Assembly (NCBI GenBank): GCA_021772595.1
Contig: JAJFLS010000378.1
Coordinates: 1-38,438, forward strand
Length of the DNA stretch: 38,438 bases
Direction: 5' to 3'
From: Opitutales bacterium
GTDB lineage: Bacteria > Verrucomicrobiota > Verrucomicrobiia > Opitutales > Opitutaceae
Positions 24,473 through 38,438 of the stretch are shown here, one piece after another (positions within the stretch are counted from its first letter, which is position 1; every line of letters begins with the position of its first letter). Made by a program: the position numbers and the translations under genes. Under the pieces are notes generated by a model. The model was not told where the DNA came from. It worked only from the letters and a program-made list of their open reading frames with translations, and did not search any database.

Positions 24473-25351
24473 CTAGAGCGTACCCAGATGTTGGATGCTT
24501 TGCTGGATGCTCTTGATTGGATGGGGCGATTGATCTTGTTCCACGTGGCAATGGGCGACGCCCGCTTTCTGGGCAGCCTGGATGATTGGCTCCATGGGGA
24601 TCATGCCATCGCCGAGCTCTTGGAACGCGTCGTTGGGCACTTTGCCGAAATCCGGTAGGGACATCCCTTTTTTGAGATCCTTGAGGTGAAGCTGGGAAAC
24701 GCGGCCTTTGAGCTTCTTGATGATATTCACGGGATCCTCTCCTCCGACGACGACCCAGAAGACGTCTACTTCAAATTTCATCTCTGGAGCGAATTCGCTC
24801 ATCAGCACCTGGTAGCCGGTCTTCCCGCCTTCCTTCGGCTGGAACTCGAACGCGTGGTTGTGATAGGCTAGCTGGATGCCGGCTTCCTGCGCTTTGACGG
24901 CGGCTCGGTTGCAGTTCTCGGCGAGGCGTTTGTAGTCGTCGAGAGTCTCGCGATTGGGTTCGTGAATATAGGGGACGACGAGGTGCGTGAGGCCCGTCTT
25001 CTTGGCCGCCTCGAGGATTTCACCGAAAGGCCTAACTCCGTCTTTGGTTGGATTGGTGACGGATTCCCAGTCGAAATGGGTGGAATTGACGGCCATGCCG
25101 TGGTCTTTGGCCGCTTGGATCATCGGGCCCGCATTGGGGAAACCGTAGGGCTCGACCTGCTTGTAGCCGGCTTCGGCCACGGCTTTGATGGTGCCGACGG
25201 TGTCTTTAACCAGTTCGTTGCGGAGTGTGTAGAGCTGGATGCCGATCTCCTTGCGATAGCGATTGTTCTTGCCCAGCGCCATGGCTTGGAAAGCGGCGGT
25301 TGAGGCGAGTGAAGAGGCGAGGGCGGTTCTTAGGAATTGGCGTCGTTTCAT
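24473..25351 (-). CDS. Tat-exported sugar-phosphate isomerase/epimerase-family TIM-barrel protein (AP endonuclease 2/xylose isomerase-like)
   Basis: Twin-arginine signal MKRRQFL; GIQLYTLR, YHNHAFEF, FEVDVFW, LHLKD, HVEQD. Confidence 0.9.
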   Translation of the reverse strand: MKRRQFLRTALASSLASTAAFQAMALGKNNRYRKEIGIQLYTLRNELVKDTVGTIKAVAEAGYKQVEPYGFPNAGPMIQAAKDHGMAVNSTHFDWESVTNPTKDGVRPFGEILEAAKKTGLTHLVVPYIHEPNRETLDDYKRLAENCNRAAVKAQEAGIQLAYHNHAFEFQPKEGGKTGYQVLMSEFAPEMKFEVDVFWVVVGGEDPVNIIKKLKGRVSQLHLKDLKKGMSLPDFGKVPNDAFQELGDGMIPMEPIIQAAQKAGVAHCHVEQDQSPHPIKSIQQSIQHLGTL

Positions 25352-25464: not shown

Positions 25465-25501
25465 TTCTTTTAGTGTGTTTTCGCGATTCGTTCGTCGCAG
25501 G
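25465..25501 (+). promoter_or_regulatory. Putative ECF-sigma autoregulatory promoter (copy 1)
   Basis: TTCTTTTAGTGT-N16-CGTCGCAGG; the same motif and spacing occur at 27477-27513. Confidence 0.7.
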
Positions 25502-25561: not shown

Positions 25562-26104
25562 ATGCCCCCAGAATGCTCAGATCAGTCCCGATGGTTTTCG
25601 GAACACCTCCAGCCGCATGAGGCGATGCTACGGGGCTGGTTGCAAAGCCGTTTCCCCACGGAGTGCGATATCGACGACGTTTTGCAGGAGTCGTATCTCA
25701 GAGTACTGAAAGCAAAGGAACGGGATGAGGTGCAGTCACCCAAGGCGTTTCTGTTCGCAACGGCCCGTAACTTGGCAGTCGACCGCGTGCGGAGGCTGAA
25801 CATCATTCGCGCGGAATCTTTAATGGAAAACGACGCCTTGTCCGTCTTAGATGAAGGCGAGGACATTTCCGAGACGGTCTCTCGCAATCAGGAATTAGAA
25901 ATTTTGACCGAAGCAATACAGGCTCTCCCAGATCGCTGCCGTAGAATATTCACGCTGCGGAAGGTCTACGGTATGTCGCAAAGCGACATTGCCCGGAAGA
26001 TGGGAGTTTCGGTCTACACGGTGTCGGCTCAACTGACAATAGGGGTGCGCAAATGCACGGATTTTATGGAGTCGCGTTGCGATAGAGGGAAACGAATTTC
26101 ATGA
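25562..26104 (+). CDS. FecI-like ECF sigma factor, 180 aa
   Basis: DDVLQESYLR...SPKAFLFATARNLAVD...ALPDRCRRIFTLRKVYGMSQSDIA; ATGA overlap with fecR; start ATG 25562. Confidence 0.92.
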   Translation: MPPECSDQSRWFSEHLQPHEAMLRGWLQSRFPTECDIDDVLQESYLRVLKAKERDEVQSPKAFLFATARNLAVDRVRRLNIIRAESLMENDALSVLDEGEDISETVSRNQELEILTEAIQALPDRCRRIFTLRKVYGMSQSDIARKMGVSVYTVSAQLTIGVRKCTDFMESRCDRGKRIS

Positions 26105-27144
26105 GTGTAAGAGAATTTAATTCGGGAGACGACTCTCGCATCGAAGCAGAAGCAGCCGAGTGGCTCATCAAGCGCGACCGTGGATTCACGGCGGAAGAGC
26201 AGGACGCGTTTTTCCAATGGCTCGGCCAAAGCGCGGTTCACGGCGATTGCTTTGCGAGGCATCAGAAGACCTGGAAGGAGTTTGATTTCCTGGCCCAGTG
26301 GATGCCCGAGCATAGCGGGGAGCCCAATCCGGATTTGCTGGCGAACGGGATGCCTCGGAAATGGTGGAAGTCATGGCGGCCCTATATGGCGCTCGCTGCA
26401 TCGCTAGTGATAGCTATTACGCTTTGGTCGCTGCGGGATGAGTTTGGCGGCTTGCCGGAAAGGCCGGCTCTGCATATCGTCGCGAGTGACTATGGATACC
26501 ATGTCCTGGAAGACGGCTCGGAATTGGATATGAATCGCGGAGCTGAGGTGTCGGTCGAATTCTCGGAAGGGATTCGATTGGTGAAGCTGCTCGCGGGCGA
26601 AGTTCATTTTACAGTGGCCAAGAATCCGAACCGGCCGTTCGTGGTAAGAGCGGGGGGAGCAGATGTACGCGCTGTGGGGACGGCCTTCAACGTATTGCTC
26701 GGTTCCGATTCGTTGGAAGTGTTGGTGACAGAAGGCAAAGTGCGCGTGGAGCAAGCGGTCTTGTCGGATGATCTTAAGGTTGATACGGATGCGGTTCCGA
26801 TCGGTTTGGACTTGGTTCCCGGTCAGCGTTCGGTGGTGCCCTTCGACCTGGATGCGTCTGAGTTTGAGACTACAAATGTCGATGAGGAGGAAATGGGGCT
26901 GCTATTGTCGTGGAAGCATGAATTGCTGGATTTCGACACGACGCCGTTGAGAGAAGCGGTGATAGAGTTTAATCGCCGTAACGATGTGCAACTAGTGATT
27001 GCCGATGATTCGTTGGGCGATCTGCCGATTGTGGTATCTTTTCGATCCAACAACGTCCAGGGTTTCGCCCGTCTTCTGGAACTAACCTTCGAAATCGAAG
27101 TGGAGAGAACAAGCGAACTGGAGATTGTATTGAGGAAGCGTTAA
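26101..27144 (+). CDS. FecR-family anti-sigma/transmembrane sensor
   Basis: EAAEWL...FFQWL N-terminus, one TM helix, LEDGS, GEVHFTVAKNPNRPFVV, VRAVGTAFNV, VTEGKV, SW...LDF...PLREAVIEFNR. Confidence 0.94.
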   Translation: MSVREFNSGDDSRIEAEAAEWLIKRDRGFTAEEQDAFFQWLGQSAVHGDCFARHQKTWKEFDFLAQWMPEHSGEPNPDLLANGMPRKWWKSWRPYMALAASLVIAITLWSLRDEFGGLPERPALHIVASDYGYHVLEDGSELDMNRGAEVSVEFSEGIRLVKLLAGEVHFTVAKNPNRPFVVRAGGADVRAVGTAFNVLLGSDSLEVLVTEGKVRVEQAVLSDDLKVDTDAVPIGLDLVPGQRSVVPFDLDASEFETTNVDEEEMGLLLSWKHELLDFDTTPLREAVIEFNRRNDVQLVIADDSLGDLPIVVSFRSNNVQGFARLLELTFEIEVERTSELEIVLRKR

Positions 27145-27476
27145 GCGTAGCTCTTGAATTGGCGAGGCCGTAAGGCGGAGCGTGGAAAAGTGTACTTATA
27201 AGCCCGATTGTGAAGAGGGCCGTTCGTATGGGCTTCGACTTATTGTACACTCTCTCAGACGATAGTTCCGTTATGCGTATCCAAAAATTTGTTATAAGCG
27301 ATATTGACGCAGCGATAATAGCGATTTCGAGGAATTTGCGCGGTTGTAATTGCAATGTTCAATGCATGATGAAATCGCATCGTCGGTTCGAGTGAGGGTA
27401 GTTATCCATGTGAGCATTGGACGCATTAAACCGTTTTCTGCATCTCTTGCTGGACAGTGAAGCAATACCCTAATAA

Positions 27477-27513
27477 TTCTTTTAGTGTAATTCTAATGTT
27501 CAAACGTCACAGG
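27477..27513 (+). promoter_or_regulatory. Putative ECF-sigma-dependent promoter (copy 2) of the TonB-dependent transducer
   Basis: TTCTTTTAGTGT-N16-CGTCACAGG, 30 nt upstream of ATG 27544. Confidence 0.7.
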
Positions 27514-27543
27514 GGCCACGCGCAAGCGCCCCTATGTCAAACT

Positions 27544-30500
27544 ATGTCCCATTCGAGATTTCTGCGTTTGCAGGTATCCCATCTGAATATCAGATGGGTG
27601 GGTCGTATGCTGGCATTGGGGGTCTTGTTAAACGGCTTGGTCCTTTTCGCGGAAGCGGAAGAGACCAGCCGAAACTACGACATCCCAGAGGGCAAAGCGA
27701 TCAAGACTCTCAAGCTAGCAGCGCTCCAAGGCGAAGTGGACATTATGTTCGCCGCCAGCGTCGCGAAAGGCGTGAGAACCCGATCCATCGAAGGGGAGTT
27801 CACAGTGAGCGAAGCGCTCGATCATATGCTGGAGGGCTCTTCGCTCTCTGTTGTCCAGGACGAAGATTCTGGCGCGTTTGCGATCGTTCGTATTGCGGCT
27901 GACAAACTCGACCACGAATCGGCCTCTAGGGATTCCACAACCCCAATAGCTGAACCTAGAAATACGACTAAAATGAACGAAAAGAAACGAAATATCCGCG
28001 GCCTATTCAAAGGGCTGCTCGCGCTTGCGGTTGCAGGCGCACCTAATCTCTCCGCCCAAGATGGAGGCGATGAGGAAGTGATTGAGCTATCGCCATTTAT
28101 GGTAAGCTCCAGTGATGATACCGGATACCGGGCTACCTCGACCCTGGCGGGTTCTCGCCTTAACATGCAGCTGAAGGACGTTGGTTCTGCGGTCTCGGTT
28201 ATGACGGAGGAATTCATGGACGATACCGGCGCCACCGATGCGGGGACGCTGCTTTCCTATGGACTGAGTACCGAGGTGGCCTCAGGCGATCAGGGAAACT
28301 TCTCAGCTTCTAGTACATCTGGCGATGGCAGGCAGTCTCAAAAATCTGCTCGCGTAAATCCCCAAGGGGGTCAACGCATACGCGGACTGTCTTCGGCGAC
28401 TCTGACCAGAGGATATTTTCTAACCAGCATCCCTTTCGACAAATATAACACGGGTGCCGTAACCATCAATAGAGGGCCTAACTCGCTTCTGTTCGGCATT
28501 GGCAGTCCAGGTGGTGTTATCAATAGCGGTATAAAAGGGGCCACTGTTGGAAGTGAGTTCGGCGAAGTCGAAGCCCGTCTAGGCGAACGTGGAAGCTATC
28601 GCGTTTCATTGGACTACAACAAAACGCTGATAGAAGATCGCCTTGCCTTAAGATTCTCGTTGCTGGAATCGGATACGCAATACCAGCAGAGGCCCGCCTA
28701 TCAGGAAACTTCGCGGCAGTTCTTCGCTTTGCAGGCGAATTTGGCCAAGAACGATAACGTCGACTGGCTGGGGGCGACCACCCTGCGAGCCAATTATGAG
28801 AACGGGACTATTAAAGGCGCTCCAGTAAATAATATTTCAATGTATGATGCGGTGTCCCACTGGTTTGGATTGCCGGACAATATCGACCAGGTGCACGCGA
28901 TAACGGGTGTCGCAAAGGCTCCTTTTGTTGCGAACTATCAGCCCAAGTGGACAGTGGATAACAGTCAAGGGGCGTTTGGGGCTCCAGATTTGGAGAATTT
29001 CGGTCCTAATCGCAATGCCTACTGGGAGCATCTGCCCGTAGTCTTTAACGACCCGTCCGCCACCGAGAGTTCGGTGGGCCTGCCCGATGCCTCCATCGAC
29101 GGCGTGCTTGCTCGCGTGCAGTGGGCAAAAACAAGCGATGATCCCGGTTATGGTCGAGCTGACTTGATCATGAGCGAAAGCTACTTCGGGCAGAACCGTT
29201 CTGGTAGCGGGCTTAGAGCCCCTGGGTTTTCATATCCCAATATTATCGATACAAACGTTTACGATAACCGCCGCATGCTTCTAACCGGCACGAACCAATG
29301 GGTGGAGCACGATTTCGATGTTAAAAACATCAGGCTCGAGCAGACCTTTCTGGACAACAAAGCGGGAATCGAATTGGCCTACAATGCTGAAAACTACGCG
29401 CGTCAGGAGCATATGCCGGCATCCAACGGACACCGGCAAAGCATTATGGTGGACCTTAACGAGAGACTTTCAAATGGCATGGTGAACCCCAACGTCGGTC
29501 GACCGTTCCTTTTCGATATGGGAACCGATGACCGGAATATCAATCACACGGATCGGGAAGCCTATCAAGCCACTGCCTTTTATGAGATCGATTTCAGCAG
29601 CAGGGGCGACGGGTGGACCAGCTGGTTGGGACGCCATGTTCTCACAGGATTCGCTGGCTCCCAAACGATTGACAATAAGAGCTTTCAATATCGCCCGGTG
29701 ATGATGGATATCGATGGTAGCACCGACATCGCGTCCTACCAGAATAATAAGCTTAATGCGTGGCGCCGGAATATTCCCAGCGTGGTTTACCTTGGGCCGT
29801 CGATGCTCGGATCGGAATACCAATCTCTCTCCGATGTGCAGATCGACAATTATTGGCATGGACGCACGCCGCAAACGGGGGATATCGTGACCGAGCAGTA
29901 TCAAACCTGGACCCCGACCTGGAAGGGCGATGGGTTTGAGCAAGACCTGTTCTTTCAAGACGACTTCGTAGTCGAGGAATTCCTCATCAACGGCGGCCGC
30001 TCGCGCCGCGAAATCGATTCGGAAGTCATCAGTTCCCAGAGTCACTGGCTTAACGGCAATGTCGTCACGGTTGTCGGCTGGAGGAGCGATGAAATGACGG
30101 ACACCCGTCGAATCCAAAACTCCGTTTACAATGATTTGGCGCCGGACACCAATAACTTCCGTTTCGCAAACGGGGCTATGGATCCGGGTTCTTTCGTTCT
30201 TGGTGAATTGGAGGATGATATGACGTCTCAATCCGGAAACACCTTTTCGGGAAGCATCGTTGCCCATGTGCCGAAGAATTGGTTGAAGCTTCCTTACGAT
30301 TCCCGTTTGAGCTTCCACTATAGCGAGTCCGAGAATTTCTCGGCTTCAGGAGTCCGCAGAAATGTTCTAGGAGAACTCGTTCCAGCGCCGACAGGGGAAA
30401 CCACTGATCAAGGCTTCACGCTGAACACCTTGAACAATCGGTTATCTATCCGTTTGAATTGGTTCGAAACCTCGAGCAGTTTTGCAAGCGGAACGGGCGT

Positions 30501-31434
30501 TGGGGCGCCCGGTTGGGTTAACGGCGGCATGCAGCGTTGGAGAGATGCGGAAACCGGTGGCATGACCTTCGCAGATGCTATGGCATTGAATACCGATTTA
30601 ACAGGCACCGACGTATCCCATCTATTCAGCAGCTACCAGGACGTTTACGACGAAGCGTTGAGCATGCTTCCCCAGCAGGTAAAGGATCGCTGGGAAGGGT
30701 GGGATGAGAACGGTACAGGCAAGTTTGGCGTTTGGACTCCGAATCCGGGCCAGTCGGCAACCCGAGACTTCGTTGCCGAAGGTTTTGAAGTGGATATCAC
30801 TGGGAAACTGACAGAAGGCTGGACCGTTGCTCTGAATGTGGCCAAACAGGAAACCGTCACATCCAACTCGTCGCCTGTAGCCTCGGAATTCGCGTTTACG
30901 GTAGCCGAGAACTATGCGAATTCCCCGCTGGGAAATATGATCGACTCGCCTAACCTTTCAGAGCCGCAGACTTGGTCGCAGCGCTGGGTTACCTCCGCGA
31001 TAAATCCGATGGTTGCAGCCATCGCAAAGGACGGTCAGGTTTCCCAGGAGCAAAGGAAATGGCGCGCTAATTTCATCACCAACTACACCTTTACCGAAGG
31101 CTTTCTAAAAGACTTCCAAATTGGTGGGGCGCTTCGGTGGCAGGATAAGATCGCCACAGGCTATCACGTAACAGTCACTGGAGATGGCCGCGTGTTTCCA
31201 ATTATAGATGATCCATTTTTTGGAGAAGCTGAAATGAATGGAGACCTTTGGCTCAAGTACGGCCGGCCTATTCTCAATGATAAAGTCGATTGGAAGGTAC
31301 AGCTTAATTTGAGAAATATCTATCGGAGCAATAGTGACTTTATTCCTATTCTGACCAATCCGGATGGCCGGCACGCGATATACCGGAATGCTAATCCAGA
31401 GGAGATATTCCTGACCAACACGTTTAGTTTTTAG
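27544..31434 (+). CDS. TonB-dependent receptor/transducer with an STN domain and a second, internal signal peptide (possible second start at ATG 27973)
   Basis: Signal peptide, STN domain (YDIPEG...IEGEFTVSEALDHMLEGSSL), plug (ELSPFMV...GYRATSTLAGSR...IRG...INRGPNSLLFG...PGG), beta-barrel and C-terminal LTNTFSF beta-signal. Start 27544 is chosen because earlier starts fall within or upstream of the putative promoter. Confidence 0.9.
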   Translation: MSHSRFLRLQVSHLNIRWVGRMLALGVLLNGLVLFAEAEETSRNYDIPEGKAIKTLKLAALQGEVDIMFAASVAKGVRTRSIEGEFTVSEALDHMLEGSSLSVVQDEDSGAFAIVRIAADKLDHESASRDSTTPIAEPRNTTKMNEKKRNIRGLFKGLLALAVAGAPNLSAQDGGDEEVIELSPFMVSSSDDTGYRATSTLAGSRLNMQLKDVGSAVSVMTEEFMDDTGATDAGTLLSYGLSTEVASGDQGNFSASSTSGDGRQSQKSARVNPQGGQRIRGLSSATLTRGYFLTSIPFDKYNTGAVTINRGPNSLLFGIGSPGGVINSGIKGATVGSEFGEVEARLGERGSYRVSLDYNKTLIEDRLALRFSLLESDTQYQQRPAYQETSRQFFALQANLAKNDNVDWLGATTLRANYENGTIKGAPVNNISMYDAVSHWFGLPDNIDQVHAITGVAKAPFVANYQPKWTVDNSQGAFGAPDLENFGPNRNAYWEHLPVVFNDPSATESSVGLPDASIDGVLARVQWAKTSDDPGYGRADLIMSESYFGQNRSGSGLRAPGFSYPNIIDTNVYDNRRMLLTGTNQWVEHDFDVKNIRLEQTFLDNKAGIELAYNAENYARQEHMPASNGHRQSIMVDLNERLSNGMVNPNVGRPFLFDMGTDDRNINHTDREAYQATAFYEIDFSSRGDGWTSWLGRHVLTGFAGSQTIDNKSFQYRPVMMDIDGSTDIASYQNNKLNAWRRNIPSVVYLGPSMLGSEYQSLSDVQIDNYWHGRTPQTGDIVTEQYQTWTPTWKGDGFEQDLFFQDDFVVEEFLINGGRSRREIDSEVISSQSHWLNGNVVTVVGWRSDEMTDTRRIQNSVYNDLAPDTNNFRFANGAMDPGSFVLGELEDDMTSQSGNTFSGSIVAHVPKNWLKLPYDSRLSFHYSESENFSASGVRRNVLGELVPAPTGETTDQGFTLNTLNNRLSIRLNWFETSSSFASGTGVGAPGWVNGGMQRWRDAETGGMTFADAMALNTDLTGTDVSHLFSSYQDVYDEALSMLPQQVKDRWEGWDENGTGKFGVWTPNPGQSATRDFVAEGFEVDITGKLTEGWTVALNVAKQETVTSNSSPVASEFAFTVAENYANSPLGNMIDSPNLSEPQTWSQRWVTSAINPMVAAIAKDGQVSQEQRKWRANFITNYTFTEGFLKDFQIGGALRWQDKIATGYHVTVTGDGRVFPIIDDPFFGEAEMNGDLWLKYGRPILNDKVDWKVQLNLRNIYRSNSDFIPILTNPDGRHAIYRNANPEEIFLTNTFSF

Positions 31435-31460
31435 ATCTTCTTTTTAGATCGTTTTTCCTG

Positions 31461-31494
31461 AGGTCCCGCGCGTTTTCGCGCGGGGCCTTTCTTG
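31461..31494 (+). terminator. Rho-independent terminator after the TonB-dependent receptor
   Basis: AGGTCCCGCGCG-TTTT-CGCGCGGGGCCT followed by TTCTT. Confidence 0.75.
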
Positions 31495-32012: not shown

Positions 32013-33302
32013 ATGATGAATCTATCACGACGAAAATTCGTTCAAACAGCGGCGACTTCTGCAATAGCTGCCAACGCGCTGCTCTCTAAAGCGGGAGCCT
32101 CTGACTCCACGGCCAGCAAGACCGTGAAGGTCGCGGCCATCGGCTGCGGCGGTCGCTCGAATCGGGACATCCCGAATTTCATAAAAGCCTGCGACATGCT
32201 GGGGCTGAAGGCGGAATTCGTCGCCTTGGCGGACGCTTTTGAGGACAAGGCGTTTGAGCAAGCGGACAAATACGAGATCGACCGCAGCCGCTGTATCGTC
32301 GGCTGGGACTCGTACCAGAAGGTGGCCGAATCCGACGCGGAGTTCGTGATGCTGATCACGCCGCCGGTTTTCCGCCCGAAACATTTGGAAACGCTCGTCG
32401 AAGCAGGAAAACACGTGCTCATGCAAAAGCCCGTCGCTGTGGACGCCCCCGGTTGCCGCAAGGTGATCGAAGCCGGTGAACGCGCGAAGAAGAAAGGTCT
32501 GGCGATTCTGGCCGGCACGCAGCGCCGCCACACGGTCGGCTATATGGAGAACGCCGCGAAAATCGAAAACGGCGCGATCGGCGAAATCCTTGGCGGAACG
32601 GTCAGCTGGAACGGAACCGTGCCGTGGATCTGGGAACGCCAGAAAGGCTGGAGCGACGCGGATTACCTCGCTCGCAATTGGCTCAACTGGTATCAGATGT
32701 CTGGAGACCATCTCGGTGAGCAACACGTCCACAACATCGACGTTGCCAACTGGTATCTGGGACGCACGCCTCAGTCGGCAATCGGCTTCGGTGGCCGCGC
32801 GCGTCGCGAGACGGGTAACAACTACGATTTCTTCAGCCTCGATCTCGACTATGGAAACGGCGTGCACATTCACAGCCAATGCCGTCAGATCAGCGGCACC
32901 TATCCTCGCGTCGGCGAGTTCTTCCGCGGAACGAAAGGCGAAGTCCAAGGGGGCGGAAAATTGAAAGGCGTCGATGTATCGATCCCGAAATTCGACGTGA
33001 TGGACAAGGACGGAAACGTGCAGGAATTGTTAGACTGGATACAAAGCGCTCGCAGCGGAAATCCGATCAACGAAGCCCGCCAGATCGCCGAGTCGACAGC
33101 GACTGCCATAATGGGACGCTACGCGGCCTATACCGGCAAGTTCGTTCGGTTTAGCGATCTGATGGCGAATCCGAAATCCGAGTTCTACGATTTGAAGGTC
33201 AGCATCCAGCCCGAGCATTTCGAAAAGGGCATCGTCGCTCTGCCGCCCGAAAACGAAGTCCCCGTCCCCGGCGACGGCAAAGAGATCCGGCGACGGGTTT
33301 AG
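32013..33302 (+). CDS. Tat-exported Gfo/Idh/MocA-family oxidoreductase
   Basis: SRRKFV Tat signal; IGCGGR nucleotide-binding motif; KHVLMQKPVA; GTQRR; GDHLGEQHVHNID. Confidence 0.93.
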   Translation: MMNLSRRKFVQTAATSAIAANALLSKAGASDSTASKTVKVAAIGCGGRSNRDIPNFIKACDMLGLKAEFVALADAFEDKAFEQADKYEIDRSRCIVGWDSYQKVAESDAEFVMLITPPVFRPKHLETLVEAGKHVLMQKPVAVDAPGCRKVIEAGERAKKKGLAILAGTQRRHTVGYMENAAKIENGAIGEILGGTVSWNGTVPWIWERQKGWSDADYLARNWLNWYQMSGDHLGEQHVHNIDVANWYLGRTPQSAIGFGGRARRETGNNYDFFSLDLDYGNGVHIHSQCRQISGTYPRVGEFFRGTKGEVQGGGKLKGVDVSIPKFDVMDKDGNVQELLDWIQSARSGNPINEARQIAESTATAIMGRYAAYTGKFVRFSDLMANPKSEFYDLKVSIQPEHFEKGIVALPPENEVPVPGDGKEIRRRV

Positions 33303-33317
33303 ATTTGTTTGCTAAAT

Positions 33318-33393
33318 GGTAGGGCTGCTTGTCCTCAAGCAGCCGAAAAGTATTGGTACGATCTGCGGCTGCTTAGGGATAAGCAGCCCTACC
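33318..33393. repeat. REP doublet (family C, GTAGGGCTGCTT...AAGCAGCCG)
   Basis: ggtagggctgcttgtcctcaagcagccg ... cggctgcttagggataagcagccctacc. Confidence 0.88.
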
Positions 33394-33446
33394 TTGCTGC
33401 AAACTACGAAGACCGAAAAAAGCGTATAACTAATACGATCCTTGAG

Positions 33447-34556
33447 ATGAAATGGAAATGCCACGCAGCTACTTGGTTGCTTACTGCTCTTGCGTTTTTC
33501 TCGATTGTCGAAGCGACTCCCGATTCAGAGGAAGCCGCGGAACCCTGGACCTTCGTCAGTATTCCCGACTTTCTGAATTTCGATATAGAGTACCCGCAGG
33601 TGGGTTGGGAGGACGCGCTGGGATTCATTTTGGACTCCATGAAAAGCGAGGAGCCCGCTTTCGTTATGGTTGCGGGCGACTTGGTTATGGGGCATTGGGG
33701 GACGGTCGAGGAAGAAGTCGATAAATGGGCGGATCAATATTATCCGCAATGGATAAACCGCTTCAAGGATCACGGCCTAAAAGTCTACACGGCGCTTGGT
33801 GACCATGAGATCGGCGACAATCCGTGGCGGAACGAAAGGGCGAAAGCAGTTCCCTTCTATAAAGAGGCCTTCAAGCGTCACCTCCAAATGCCTCTCAACG
33901 GACCAGAACATATGAAAGGCACCGCATTTCATTGGCGGCACAAGAATGTTCTATTCGTGTCCGTCGATGTCTTCGAAAAAGGGAACGGGCAGGAAGGCGA
34001 AATCGTCGCGCAAGTTACGGGCAGGCAACTGGCGTGGCTCGATGATGTATTGAAAACGCATCGCGAAGAGGTCGACCACTTCGTTGTAATGGGCCATACT
34101 CCAATCTTGCGCCCGGTTCGGATGTTTAGCTCGAGCGGCATGCTGCTAGAAGTGGGCCGCGAATCGGATTTATGGAAGACCTTCGTGAAGTACAATGTAG
34201 ATTTATATATTTGCGGCGAAGTCCATGCGGTGACCTGCACGGAGATTGACGGTATTCAGCAAGTTGCGCACGGCGGGCTGATCGGTCGAACGACGAAACC
34301 AAACTACATGGTGGTCACGGTACATAATGATCGGCTCGAGCTTGAACTCAAGGAGATAGACCTGATCAACGGCGAAGGGATGCTCTGGCAGCACGACAAG
34401 AAACGCGGCCCATACGATACGATACAAATAACCGAGGCCCGCAAGCGGGAAGGGTTCAAGTCGATCGGCTTTGCGTGCATCGACAAGCGAGAAGGCGAAA
34501 GACGATTCGAATCCGTATCCGGATTCTTCGACGAAACGAACAATCCTGTTGATTAG
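33447..34556 (+). CDS. Exported calcineurin-like metallophosphoesterase with atypical metal ligands, 369 aa
   Basis: Signal peptide from ATG 33447; motifs SIPDF, VAGDLV, LGDHE, QLAWL, MGHTP, ICGEVH. Confidence 0.8.
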   Translation: MKWKCHAATWLLTALAFFSIVEATPDSEEAAEPWTFVSIPDFLNFDIEYPQVGWEDALGFILDSMKSEEPAFVMVAGDLVMGHWGTVEEEVDKWADQYYPQWINRFKDHGLKVYTALGDHEIGDNPWRNERAKAVPFYKEAFKRHLQMPLNGPEHMKGTAFHWRHKNVLFVSVDVFEKGNGQEGEIVAQVTGRQLAWLDDVLKTHREEVDHFVVMGHTPILRPVRMFSSSGMLLEVGRESDLWKTFVKYNVDLYICGEVHAVTCTEIDGIQQVAHGGLIGRTTKPNYMVVTVHNDRLELELKEIDLINGEGMLWQHDKKRGPYDTIQITEARKREGFKSIGFACIDKREGERRFESVSGFFDETNNPVD

Positions 34557-34562
34557 AAACTA

Positions 34563-36158
34563 ATGAAGAAAACTTGCTCACTAGCGGCCGCGGTTATCCT
34601 TTCGAGCGTTCTGACTCAACCTTGTTTTAGCGAAAGCGAGTCGGATGTCTTTAAAGAAGCCCTACGTAATGGCGAGCTGGCCAACGAAGGTTTCCGTCGT
34701 TGCGACCACTATGTGGAAGGTTGGCTACGACTGGCTGATCCCGAGACAGGACTGCTTCCTCGAAACAGGAAAGACCAATTTTGGAACGCGAAGGACTCAG
34801 CGGCGGACAATTATCCGTTTATGGTCCTGACGACGAGCTTCACGAACCGCCCGATGTTTGAGGGCAGGATGAAGGCTATGCTGGCTACGGAAATCAAACT
34901 GACATCCCGGATAGACAGTCTTCCGGATACATACGACTTTGTGAAGCGAGGCTTCCAAAGCGAAGAGACCGACTTAGATAGTATAATGTTCGGATCTTCT
35001 GAGTACATTAAAGACGGACTGCTTCCGCTCGCCGAGTGGCTAGGTCCGAGTCCGTGGAGTGAGCGGATGATTAGCATTCTCGATGACATGTGGAAACACG
35101 CTCCAGTGGATACTCCCTACGGGAAGATCGTCTCGACCAACGTGGAGGTGAATGGCGAGATGCTTCAAGCCCTCTCGAGAATCTACTGGATGACAGGCAA
35201 ACGAAAATATCTCGATTGGGCAGTTCGGCTAGGCGACTATTACCTTCTCGGCAACCATCACCCGACGCGGGACACGAGCCAGCTCAGACTGCGCGATCAC
35301 GGATGCGAGATCGTTTCCGGACTTTGCGAGCTGTACGCGGCGGCGAGTTTCGCCCTGCCCGAGAAGAAGAAGGCGTACGAAAAACCGATCCACGAAATGC
35401 TGGACCGCATTCTGGAGGTGGGAAGAAACGAGCACGGGCTTTTCTACAATGTTGTCGATCCTCTTGAGGGAGCTCCGACCAACGAAGGAATTGCGGACAC
35501 GTGGGGCTACACCTACAATGGATTCTATATCGTCTACCTTGTGGATGAAACTGAATCCTATCGCATTGCCGCTATTGAAGCATTGTCGAACATAAAAGAG
35601 CACTACCGTAGCTACGATTGGGAGCACGGCAGTGCCGACGGTTACGCGGACTCTATCGAGAGCGCTCTTAACCTGTACAATCGAGAGCGCATTGCCTACG
35701 CTGCGCAGTGGATCGACAGCGAAATCAAGGTTATGTGGGAAATGCAAAAAGAGGACGGAGTCATCGAAGGCTGGTATGGCGACGGCAACTTCGCGCGGAC
35801 ATCGATCATGTACTGTCTGTGGAAAACTCAAGGCGTGTCTGTGCAGCCCTGGAGAGAAGATCTAATATTCGGCGCTGTTCAGAAAGGGGACACTCTTTAT
35901 ATATCTCTAACCGCTGAGAAAGACTGGATGGGGAGGCTGATTTTCGATGCCCCTCGGCACAAATCCAACATGGGGCTTCCGATCGACTGGCCGAGGATCA
36001 ACCAGTTTCCAGAATGGTTCACAGTGGATGAAGATAAAACCTATATCCTGTCAGAGTCGAAAATTAGACCAATTAAATATACAGGAGCCAATTTACATCA
36101 GGGAGTTGAAGTGAATCTGGGAAAGGGTGAAGTTAATCAGATAACGGTTCACCGATAG
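34563..36158 (+). CDS. Exported putative (alpha/alpha)6-barrel glycoside-hydrolase-like protein, family unassigned
   Basis: Signal peptide; helical repeats such as 'LSRIYWMTGKRKYLDWAVRLGDYY' typical of six-hairpin glycosidases; C-terminal beta-rich domain; glycan-locus context. Confidence 0.6.
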   Translation: MKKTCSLAAAVILSSVLTQPCFSESESDVFKEALRNGELANEGFRRCDHYVEGWLRLADPETGLLPRNRKDQFWNAKDSAADNYPFMVLTTSFTNRPMFEGRMKAMLATEIKLTSRIDSLPDTYDFVKRGFQSEETDLDSIMFGSSEYIKDGLLPLAEWLGPSPWSERMISILDDMWKHAPVDTPYGKIVSTNVEVNGEMLQALSRIYWMTGKRKYLDWAVRLGDYYLLGNHHPTRDTSQLRLRDHGCEIVSGLCELYAAASFALPEKKKAYEKPIHEMLDRILEVGRNEHGLFYNVVDPLEGAPTNEGIADTWGYTYNGFYIVYLVDETESYRIAAIEALSNIKEHYRSYDWEHGSADGYADSIESALNLYNRERIAYAAQWIDSEIKVMWEMQKEDGVIEGWYGDGNFARTSIMYCLWKTQGVSVQPWREDLIFGAVQKGDTLYISLTAEKDWMGRLIFDAPRHKSNMGLPIDWPRINQFPEWFTVDEDKTYILSESKIRPIKYTGANLHQGVEVNLGKGEVNQITVHR

Positions 36159-36187
36159 GATCGCTTTTTGTAGATTATTGAAACGCG

Positions 36188-37612
36188 ATGAAAATCTTGA
36201 GTATATATGGGCTGTTGTTCATACTCGTTTTCGCTAACTCGATAAGCCAGGCGGACGATTTCGAAACGGGAAGGATACAGCCAGGTTCAGCGCATCCGCG
36301 TTACTGGCAATACCACTGTAAGCCAGTATTGCTGCTGGGCGGAACCAAGGACGATAACCTGTTTCAGATCGCTGACGTCGAGGAGCACCTCGACTTGCTC
36401 GTCAGCGTTGGCGGGAATTACATACGCTGCGTGATGAGCGGTCGCGACGAAGGGAACGTCTGGCCGTTTGCCCAAGACGACGATGGGCAATACGATCTTA
36501 CGCGTTTCAACGCGGAGTATTGGAATCGTTTCGATAGATTGCTGAAACTGACGCACGAACGACAGATCATCGTGCAGATTGAAGTATGGGCGTTTCACGA
36601 CTTCTTCGATCAATACGGAACCTGGGGCGCGAATCCGTGGCATCCCGCCAATAACGTCAATTACACTCCCGAGCTGTCGCGCCTAAAAAAAGCCTATTCG
36701 ACGGCCAACAATGTGCACCATGACTTCTTCTTCACAGTCCCGAAACTGAACGACAATCAAATCATGCTGGAGTATCAGCAGCGGTTTGCCGATCGGTTAT
36801 TAGAATCGACGCTGCGGTACGATCATGTCCTATATTGCATGACAAATGAGATTCACCCGCTCTACCCGCCTGAATGGGGCTGGTATTGGGCCGACCATAT
36901 TCGGCGGCAAGCGAGCGAAGAGGGGAAGCGGGTGGAGACTAGCGAGATGTACTGGCAGACTGATCTCAAGCACTCCCGGCATCGCCAGTCGATTGATCAT
37001 CCGGAAACCTATACCTTCTTTGAAGCATCGCAAAACAGCGCGCTGAAAGGACAGCAGAGTTGGGAAAATCTGCAGCATGTATGGCATGCTCTAGCAGAAC
37101 ATCCAAGGCCCATCAATCATACCAAGATCTACGGCGCCAATACGGGACGTGGCTGGGAAGGAAGCGACGATAACGCCACCGCGCGTTTCTGGAGAAACAT
37201 CATTGGCGGGTCGGCATCGAGCCGGTTTCACCGGCCATCGTCTGGTCTCGGATTATCGGCCGTCGCTCAGACTCATATCCGCAGCATGCGGATGCTGACT
37301 TCCGAATTGGATTTAGTCCGCTGCGTTCCGGACAGCGAGAGTCTATTGCTGTCAGATAGGGAGCCAGACGAGGCCTACCTGACGAGAGTCGACGGTCGGC
37401 AGTATGCCGTTTACTTTCCCAACGGCGGCTCCGCGCGGCTCGACCTTTCCGCGGCGCAAGGCTCGTTCACCCTGAAATGGCTCGACGTTGCGAACAGTCG
37501 CTGGGAAGAGCCCCAGACCATCGAAGCGGGTCAGCGAGTGGTACTGACGTCTCCCGGTAAAGGACATTGGGGCGCCTTCCTCCTGCGGCGGAAACCCGGA
37601 GCGTTGCACTAG
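36188..37612 (+). CDS. Exported clan GH-A-like TIM-barrel protein (DUF4038/GH140/GH5-like) with a C-terminal beta-sandwich ('putative collagen-binding') domain
   Basis: Signal peptide; HPRYWQY...LLLGG; GGNYIR; YDLTRFNAEYWNRFDRLL...IIVQIEVW; YCMTNE acid/base-like motif; C-terminal YAVYFPNGG...LKWLD...W. Confidence 0.65.
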   Translation: MKILSIYGLLFILVFANSISQADDFETGRIQPGSAHPRYWQYHCKPVLLLGGTKDDNLFQIADVEEHLDLLVSVGGNYIRCVMSGRDEGNVWPFAQDDDGQYDLTRFNAEYWNRFDRLLKLTHERQIIVQIEVWAFHDFFDQYGTWGANPWHPANNVNYTPELSRLKKAYSTANNVHHDFFFTVPKLNDNQIMLEYQQRFADRLLESTLRYDHVLYCMTNEIHPLYPPEWGWYWADHIRRQASEEGKRVETSEMYWQTDLKHSRHRQSIDHPETYTFFEASQNSALKGQQSWENLQHVWHALAEHPRPINHTKIYGANTGRGWEGSDDNATARFWRNIIGGSASSRFHRPSSGLGLSAVAQTHIRSMRMLTSELDLVRCVPDSESLLLSDREPDEAYLTRVDGRQYAVYFPNGGSARLDLSAAQGSFTLKWLDVANSRWEEPQTIEAGQRVVLTSPGKGHWGAFLLRRKPGALH

Positions 37613-37642
37613 AGAATATCCAATGAAAATTCTATTTGAAAA

Positions 37643-37712
37643 GTTCGGGACGGCGCCGAACGCTACCTATTAGGTTCTAGCATTTGGTAGCGTCCGGGCG
37701 CTGTCCCGGACG
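37643..37712. repeat. REP pair (family F, GTAGCGT(T/C)CGG...) with heads inward, between convergent genes
   Basis: gttcgggacggcgccgaacgctacc ... ggtagcgtccgggcgctgtcccggacg. Confidence 0.7.
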
Positions 37713-37727
37713 AAAGGCGTGTGTCGG

Positions 37728-38438
37728 CTACTGCCTCAGCAGCCAGTCGCGGCAGAGGTCGGTCCAGTTGGAGACGGGATAGGGTGAGGGACGGAGTCCG
37801 TAGCCGTGGCCTCCTGTGGGGAAAATGTGGATCTCAACGGGAATTCCGGCCTTGTGCAGCGCGGTGTTGTAGGCGATGGCACTGGCGACGTACTTGCGGT
37901 CGTCTTGAGTCTGCACGATGAATGCGGGCGGCGTTTGAAGGGTGACTTTGATTTCCTTGATCAAGTCGAGGTTTTCGTCGCCCAGGTAGGCGGGGTAGAT
38001 AAGCACTGTAAAATCTGGGCGGCAGGATACGCTGTCGGCGTCATCGATTGCTGGATACGTTCGCTTTTGCCAAGTGTTGCTGAGAGTGGCGGAAAGGTGG
38101 CCGCCCGCCGAGAAGCCGAGCACGCCGACGCGTTCAGGATCGATGTTCCAGTCGGTGGCCTTGTATCGGAGAAGACCGAGCGCGCGTTGCGCGTCTTGGA
38201 GCGCACCTTCGCGGTTTTTGGGCGTGCGGTATTTGAGCACGGCTGCGGAGAATCCGATGGAGTTGAGCCATTCCGCGATTTCGGTTCCTTCCAAATCCCA
38301 GGCTAGGATATTGTATGCGCCGCCTGGGCACACAAGAACGGTTGGGGCGGGGCCACGGGATTTCGCTTTGTAGAATGTGATCGATGGAACGGCGACATTG
38401 GAAATGCGGGTTACGCCGTTGTTCCTTGGGCTTGTTTC
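37728..38438 (-). CDS. Alpha/beta-hydrolase esterase (acetyl-esterase/BD-FAE-like); 5' end outside the window
   Basis: The frame is open to the window edge (ETSPRNNGVTRISNVAVPSITFY...VLVCPGGAY); nucleophile GFSAGG, Asp in QTQDD, His in GGHGYG. Confidence 0.9.
   Translation of the reverse strand, partial: ETSPRNNGVTRISNVAVPSITFYKAKSRGPAPTVLVCPGGAYNILAWDLEGTEIAEWLNSIGFSAAVLKYRTPKNREGALQDAQRALGLLRYKATDWNIDPERVGVLGFSAGGHLSATLSNTWQKRTYPAIDDADSVSCRPDFTVLIYPAYLGDENLDLIKEIKVTLQTPPAFIVQTQDDRKYVASAIAYNTALHKAGIPVEIHIFPTGGHGYGLRPSPYPVSNWTDLCRDWLLRQ

Follow-up and report, generated by a model that had tools for sequence, protein, structure and literature searches.

Why would one gene for a TonB-dependent transducer carry two start codons, each followed by its own signal peptide? 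The question is raised by contig JAJFLS010000378.1 of an Opitutales bacterium (Verrucomicrobiota; assembly GCA_021772595.1), which we analysed over its whole 38,438 nucleotides (nt) and refer to as the window. A single open frame (27544-31434, + strand; 1296 amino acids, aa) encodes, in order, a first signal peptide (SP1), an STN signalling domain, a linker, an in-frame ATG at 27973, a second signal peptide (SP2) and a whole plug-and-barrel receptor; the ATG at 27973 (M144) is the in-frame start of a 1153-aa product. Comparison of related loci suggests that two isoforms are very likely made from this one gene. It is also likely, if less firmly so, that a single transcript yields a long sensor and a short transporter, with an overlapping open reading frame (ORF) that limits the long form and clears before the inner start.

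Results

One gene with two starts and two signal peptides

A first-pass annotation, made from the sequence of the window alone, had proposed one frame with products of 1296 and 1153 aa and two signal peptides. This layout was confirmed by the sequence and by the STN-receptors of the genome: all 11 that are readable (11/11) share it. All parts of the gene lie on the + strand. The long start and SP1 (residues 1-38) occupy 27544..27657; the start is conserved in two close loci, and its context score lies at the 99.5th percentile of internal ATGs. The STN domain follows at 27670..27897 (residues 43-118). Pfam family PF07660 matched it at E 2e-4, under the curated cut-off; its predicted fold was confident (predicted local distance difference test, pLDDT, 94-98) and matched the signalling domain of PupB (6OVK chain B) with a root-mean-square deviation of 1.6 Å, as well as the signalling domains of FecA and PupA. 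A polar, in-frame linker (27898..27972) leads to the inner ATG; the initiation region in its 3' part is rich in A and C, poor in G and unstructured, as judged by start-context score, four-fold sites and folding energy. The inner ATG and SP2 (residues 144-171) lie at 27973..28056, and SP2 has a basic n-region, an h-region and an L-S-A end before Q. In the STN-containing fold model the linker and SP2 were of low confidence (disordered).

The mature receptor (28057..31434; last residue Phe) has a plug recognised by Pfam (residues 210-325); the Pfam barrel model gave no match. Residues 172-1296 (1125 aa) were nevertheless predicted to fold as a complete TonB-dependent receptor (pLDDT 88; predicted template modelling score, pTM, 0.87), with Fiu, FhuE and FpvA as the best matches in the PDB (E about 1e-35).

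The two-start layout is widespread in Opitutales

A profile of the STN domain alone, blind to the linker, was searched against 251 genomes from the order and 17 from the genus. Most of the listed matches were taken up and gave 228 distinct STN hits, the 33 unlisted ones of the order search being left out. An automatic rule for SP2 that ignores Met sorted them into 148 ORFs with SP2, 34 without SP2, 41 free-standing STN genes and five truncated ORFs; revision by hand dropped three of the 148 rows and added four by eye. Of 182 long STN ORFs, drawn from 40 Opitutales genomes in five GTDB families, 149 had the two-start layout. Loci of this genus had SP2 almost without exception (74/75), and so did most of those in the other families (39/44, 27/30, 3/3 and 2/3), against 4/27 in other Opitutaceae genera, where 23 of the 27 loci have a plain linker without a second start. 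Clustering at 50% identity left 150 representatives, 72 of them with a judgeable tail; SP2 was found in 37 of the 72, and Met in 35 of the 37. All 33 automatic SP2 calls among held-out, more divergent loci had an ATG (33/33; about two of the calls look false). Outside Opitutales, SP2 was present in three of 21 loci judged by eye, all three in Gammaproteobacteria. A phylum-wide PF07660 search returned many frames of 500-700 aa that are probably secretins, and breadth beyond the order rests on the 21 eye-judged loci. By the names of its close homologues the window belongs in Opitutales, in the vicinity of Pelagicoccus, and Pelagicoccus mobilis (protein P0008) is a cultured relative with the two-signal layout.

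Individual loci vary. SP2 or the inner start has decayed in L095, L097, L104, L112 and P0179 (ATG to CTG in L104; Met lost in P0179), and L095, L101 and L216 are broken in or after the linker. The STN-receptor frames of L038 (G000:C661), L101 and L216 break shortly past SP2, through either a pseudogene or an assembly error. L102 (G220:C4) has an SP1-STN-linker cassette with inner start and signal peptide fused to a protein whose beginning is not receptor-like, and P0024, P0121 and P0198 contain two to four STN-like repeats per protein.

The inner ATG is selected as a start codon

An ATG stood 5' of the h-region in 143 of the 148 SP2 loci. Three of the five remaining loci had TTG, GTG and GTG at the homologous place, and the other two were errors of the classifier. 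Linkers without SP2 had an ATG in 12 of 34 cases, four of which were later re-classed as SP2.

For start contexts we built a scoring matrix from half of the 391 unambiguous starts in this genome. The mean score of 145 inner starts was 4.0, compared with 2.3 for 195 held-out true starts, -2.9 for internal ATGs of the genome and -2.3 for 281 ATGs in the mature parts of the SP2-locus receptors. ATG 27973 itself scored 6.1, above 99.9% of internal ATGs, which bears out the earlier remark that its leader is A/C-rich; the leader at 32013, cited there as a like case, had only a middling score. The signal extends to synonymous sites. G made up 0.04 of four-fold sites in the last five codons before the inner start vs 0.27-0.28 in the mature part, a drop present in 30 of 31 genomes, and 86-91% of Lys, Glu and Gln codons near the inner start ended in A vs about 50%. 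The folding energy of 40-nt windows was -0.9 kcal/mol on the inner codon vs about -9 on either side; linkers without SP2 had no such dip. On these sequence patterns (ATG, GTG or TTG only, synonymous loss of G, a folding minimum), we conclude that the inner start is selected as a start codon.

Shine-Dalgarno enrichment is absent in this genome (46/391 starts vs 503/4000 internal ATGs), and the three gammaproteobacterial cases have a Shine-Dalgarno-like word before their ATG, GTG or TTG. A perfect word of this kind occurs 40-80 nt 5' of the inner ATG, in two different frames, in 25 of 72 loci of this genus (for example L023, L032, L034, L038 and L040), and in 17 of 48 it lies between the stop of the overlapping ORF and the inner start. 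As a general part of the system this distant word was rejected, being found in only 1/38 and 2/26 loci of two other families.

No sign of a separate transcript for the short form was seen: the STN and linker regions shared no two-part promoter motif, the motif found before the receptor (below) occurred before the inner start in 0/87 loci, and a sigma-70 scan gave nothing on the + strand. An internal promoter is therefore unsupported, if still conceivable. Rfam had no match within 27100-28100.

A second reading frame is kept open over SP1 and STN

The first-pass annotation caught the two starts and two signal peptides and missed what lies around the long start: an overlapping ORF, a hairpin and a promoter motif. 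The ORF (27534..27902, +) has 122 codons in the -1 frame, spans SP1 and STN, and stops 73 nt 5' of the inner ATG. Its ATG, 10 nt 5' of the long start, is conserved in an alignment with two relatives. Under a junction-corrected null, the probability of the -1 frame being open at this locus is 0.002.

The same holds across SP2 loci. Stops in the -1 frame occurred at 0.42 (SP1) and 0.53 (STN) of expectation vs 0.77 in the mature part, and in the other out-of-frame reading frame stops were not depleted. Scored from 90 nt before to 186 nt into STN (an end point set after seeing many stops at 191), the -1 frame was open in 88 of 115 loci without an accessory, free-standing STN gene vs 3.5 expected after correction for junction bias; with one locus per genome the figures were 20.8 of 30 vs 0.97. 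Ordinary genes had an ATG-led open frame of this kind in 2/391 cases, and an open frame in 41/391. T was depleted only where it would create a stop (0.05-0.07 vs 0.28-0.41). An ATG lay in the expected window in the -1 frame in 72 of 86 loci vs 10 of 86 in the other frame; in most loci it stood 10-46 nt 5' of the long start, at exactly 10 nt in 20 of 74. In 80 of 87 loci the stop of the ORF lay upstream of the inner ATG by 30 nt or more. A shorter overlapping frame, with a stop 98-113 nt into STN, was seen in L170, L171, L223, L224, L225, L075 and L152.

These depletions argue that stops in the -1 frame are selected against along SP1 and STN. With high probability the overlapping ORF is translated; that it represses the long start is, on balance, the slightly favoured reading of its position.

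A promoter motif and a hairpin precede the overlapping ORF

A candidate promoter of the receptor transcript (27481..27508, +), conserved in the alignment, consists of a two-part motif that preceded the receptor in 57 of 87 overlapping-ORF loci vs 9 expected after shuffling, the pattern having been derived from the loci in which it was counted. A pattern scan placed a second copy, with the same -35 and -10 words, 5' of the sigma gene (25469..25496, +), where it would act as a promoter too. From the -10 words of extracytoplasmic function (ECF) sigma factors, and from this second copy, we take the motif to be ECF-like; the sigma gene is likely autoregulated.

Between the motif and the overlapping ORF lies a hairpin (27511..27533, +) that ends directly 5' of the out-of-frame ATG. 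At this locus it is weak on its own (z -1.2 to -2.1). A stem ended within 2 nt of the out-of-frame ATG in 58 of 74 loci vs 31 of 150 control starts, with the best of several candidate ATGs taken per locus, and stem positions showed several pair types across loci.

SP2 fits both an internal and an N-terminal position

We assessed SP2 by hydropathy and charge rules. It was less hydrophobic than SP1, equal in hydrophobicity to the signals of stand-alone receptors, and more amphipathic than both; its A/G/S-Q cleavage end was kept in 143 of 145 loci. As the sole signal, the SP2 type occurs in 4 of 22 STN-less receptors of this genome. A weakly hydrophobic, amphipathic segment fits passage through the translocon within the long form and would still be functional when N-terminal. 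The stand-alone receptors L043, L044, L045 and L046 (G000 C131, C50, C193 and C463) have an SP2-type signal and an A/C-rich leader and lack STN and fecR; by their sequence they appear to be natural short-form-only genes. In the marine receptors L074, L115, L125, L156, L184 and L218, the linker has no working SP2 and keeps an amphipathic helix. The SP2 helix may have a second role, in the long form. Docking of the helix on STN, plug or FecR was not among the confident contacts, the fold being of low confidence there, so that this is no evidence against contact.

The STN domain is kept on the receptor

The long form, too, appears to be under selection. A linker evolving neutrally would lack stops in about 37% of cases and, by our reasoning, would be in frame in one third. 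None of the 41 free-standing STN genes precedes an STN-less receptor (0/41): 30 precede an STN-bearing receptor, one a truncated one and seven the sigma gene, and three have no identified neighbour. Since no split between STN and receptor was seen, both forms are probably made.

A gene for FecR lay within 1500 nt upstream in 137 of 148 SP2 loci. At this locus the predicted STN-FecR interface scored 0.68 vs 0.11 for the best control, with the contact in the C-terminal part of FecR, to which STN is thus predicted to bind. The mark we used is reached by 116/157 solved and 2/215 mismatched pairs; at least 70% of the contacts were shared between runs, and the pLDDT of the partner was at least 65. 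The solved PupR-PupB complex likely helped the model to pass.

Most of the free-standing STN genes have a lipoprotein-type signal and lie between fecR and the STN-receptor (30/41) or before the sigma gene (7/41); examples are L002, L006, L022, L025 and about 26 more loci, and L031 (G000:C428:36017-36370). Those between fecR and receptor belong to one FecR clade. By analogy with VreA or the cleaved FoxA domain, their products may hold FecR at rest.

Genes around the transducer

Upstream lie a FecI-like ECF sigma factor (25562..26104, +; Pfam Sigma70_r2 and r4_2, TIGR02937 over its cut-off) and a FecR-like anti-sigma factor (26101..27144, +; Pfam FecR, DUF4880 and FecR_C). A GC-rich 13-bp hairpin past the stop codon of the receptor (31460..31489, +; z -4.9) is a likely terminator, although it is unlisted in a consensus scan. 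The flanks (24473-25351 and 32013-38438) encode a Tat-type Gfo/Idh/MocA oxidoreductase, a metallophosphoesterase, a weakly GH127-like protein, a DUF6298 protein and a sugar-isomerase barrel, probable carbohydrate-use genes. The substrate of the receptor is likely a carbohydrate rather than iron, a reading that rests on the neighbouring genes only.

Discussion

A transcript probably read from three starts

How could one message serve both sensing and transport? In the mechanism we propose, one ECF-driven mRNA would be read in three ways. Start 27544 would give the long, STN-bearing sensor-transporter, start 27973 the short, transport-only receptor, and start 27534 a decoy peptide. The long precursor would be exported by SP1, and its STN would bind the C-terminal domain of FecR; SP2 within it would be too weak and too charged to stop transfer and would enter the periplasm as a tether between STN and plug. 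The short precursor would be exported by SP2 and serve transport only. Ribosomes from 27534 would compete with the long start, cover the SP1-STN region, produce no STN, and come off ahead of the inner start, which would stay free or be re-used. After induction the outcome would be much transporter and little STN. Scarcity of STN would matter because an overproduced signalling domain is reported to block such cell-surface signalling (PMC11637429). An upstream ATG 7-16 nt before a main start is reported to repress that start (PMC13285730).

Among the options of the first-pass annotation, the one best supported, by the start signals and their spread, is thus internal initiation that yields a long precursor and a short one. 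A fuller version, to which we give somewhat less than an even chance, adds that on a hairpin-capped ECF mRNA the throw-away frame takes most ribosomes, masks the STN start, covers 350 nt and frees the ribosomes before the nested gene, so that the cell has few sensors and many transporters and its sigma factor is not self-silenced; a sister clade may use a separate STN lipoprotein instead.

Several observations weigh against the three-start mechanism. Kin and paralogues in our counts are not independent. The -1 frame was open in only 13 of 29 held-out, more divergent SP2 loci, and the overlapping ORF was absent from the 28 accessory-STN loci (0/28 open) and 27 others and unseen in two of the three gammaproteobacterial cases. 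Conversely, 10 of 29 held-out loci that lack SP2, most of them high in GC, also had the -1 frame open, and three of these 10 had an upstream ATG. The start-context model rates the out-of-frame ATG as weak (median 0.29; folding -6.2) and the long start as normal (3.2), so a scarce long form does not follow from this model alone. A median of 85 nt separates the stop of the ORF from the inner ATG, a long distance for classical coupling. The amphipathic helix persists in about five marine linkers without an inner start. Finally, a Fisher test of the mutual exclusivity of overlapping ORF and accessory STN gene, tried as a measure of co-evolution, was rejected as overstated, because the accessory-STN loci form one clade and the exclusivity is a single contrast.

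Alternative explanations

The most serious alternative keeps the two isoforms and gives the overlapping ORF another main task, namely to shield the transcript from Rho or nucleases or to feed ribosomes to the inner start. We regard this as a real possibility, though clearly the less probable one. About 105-130 codons are held open, beyond what occlusion needs; the genome encodes Rho; the linker is C-rich, G-poor and unstructured; and 44 of 87 loci use the first possible stop past codon 62 of STN. Yet the out-of-frame ATG stands, in most loci, near enough to the long start (10-46 nt) to compete with it, and shielding, delivery and repression are not mutually exclusive roles.

Alternatively, as another option of the first-pass annotation had it, the long precursor could be cut at or near SP2 in the periplasm, so that the free STN would hold FecR in trans and the barrel would equal the short form. 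FoxA is reported to lose its signalling domain in vivo, and the free domain to protect FoxR (PMC11637429). The conserved A/G/S-Q end, the free-standing STN genes in related loci and the disorder of linker and SP2 in the model would all suit cleavage. The end, however, is already needed by the short form, and the orientation of SP2 at the translocon would be wrong for signal peptidase I. Complete, constitutive release would also make a stop in the linker neutral, yet no free-standing STN gene precedes an STN-less receptor, and the start signals at the DNA level would be left unexplained. Together these points make cleavage unlikely.

A recent fusion, which the first-pass annotation had also offered, fared worse. 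On this view a sigma-FecR-STN cassette would have been joined repeatedly, and not long ago, to intact receptor genes, leaving SP2 and the inner start behind as relics. Shuffling of STN, SP2 and mature domain among loci is indeed seen (STN-mature rank correlations of 0.11, -0.12 and 0.28), and STN-bearing and stand-alone receptors intermingle on a tree built by a quick method, with about 41 rows that lacked the anchor motif or length left out. The start signals, synonymous sites included, persist in five families, however, and in stand-alone receptors whose mature domains are 66-79% similar the signal peptide is mostly of another type. A start can also decay once SP2 is lost (CTG in L104 vs ATG in L095 and L097), and fusion leaves the selected overlapping ORF unexplained; we consider it very improbable.

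Equally improbable is that the overlapping ORF encodes a functional small protein replacing the accessory STN lipoprotein: its start and length are conserved, C-terminal residues recur and it is absent where the accessory STN gene is present, but four-fold-site identity over STN does not exceed that of loci lacking the ORF, so that no constraint on the peptide was detected, the peptide has no NCBIfam match, the STN sequence in the other frame accounts for its shared C-terminus, and the exclusivity comes from one clade.

Under the three-start mechanism, evolution has apparently separated the sensing and transport forms genetically. The overlapping ORF is unusual as a long frame kept open without detectable constraint on its peptide. 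Gene callers give only one product for such genes, which matters for annotation. If the mechanism is true, a three-lane mRNA would be a general design that splits sensing from uptake in marine, glycan-using Verrucomicrobiota.

Comparison with known systems

A full-text search, in a collection with few subscription journals, found no published TonB-dependent transducer described as having another start and signal peptide, in line with the first-pass annotation, whose author knew of none. The nearest relatives are FecA-FecR-FecI of E. coli, FpvA and FoxA of P. aeruginosa and PupB-PupR of P. capeferrum, which likewise combine an ECF sigma factor, a FecR-like protein and an STN-plug-barrel receptor in one locus. 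As with PupB, FecA and PupA, the STN fold is shared, and the model places the predicted STN contact in the C-terminal part of FecR. In the FecIRA type the sigma factor is activated on induction by the substrate, and classical members are under iron/Fur control. Unlike FecA-type transducers, the gene described here carries, between STN and plug, another start with its own signal peptide, and has an ORF overlapping STN; its receptor is also larger (1125 aa mature), and its neighbours are of carbohydrate type.

Other likenesses are partial. In the cleavage model for FoxA (PMC11637429), a receptor likewise exists with and without its signalling domain, and the free domain stabilises the anti-sigma factor; the short form there comes from a periplasmic protease, here from its own start and signal peptide. 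SpaO L/S, CheA L/S and SseL (PMC13515050) are each one gene with two in-frame starts whose products differ in role. Unlike in those cases, each product here is equipped with a Sec signal of its own and is predicted to reach the outer membrane, and no TonB case appears in the portion available. S. meliloti uRBS10/lacR and uRBS12 (PMC13285730) have an out-of-frame upstream ATG a few bases before the main ATG, opening a frame that overlaps the gene. Here, in contrast, the frame is held open for more than 100 codons in many genomes and ends before a second start, in a host without Shine-Dalgarno enrichment. VreA of the P. aeruginosa PUMA3 system (PMC2729926) has an STN acting without a barrel and comes nearest to the free-standing STN genes; VreA is barrel-less with a TolA/TonB-like C-terminal domain, whereas the gene here has a complete barrel.

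The FecIRA type is defined by one precursor, one signal peptide and a plain STN-plug linker, and here we found two starts, two signal peptides and a linker that carries the second of each. The gene is a transducer of the FecA/FoxA type, and a variant of it in departing from the one-precursor feature.

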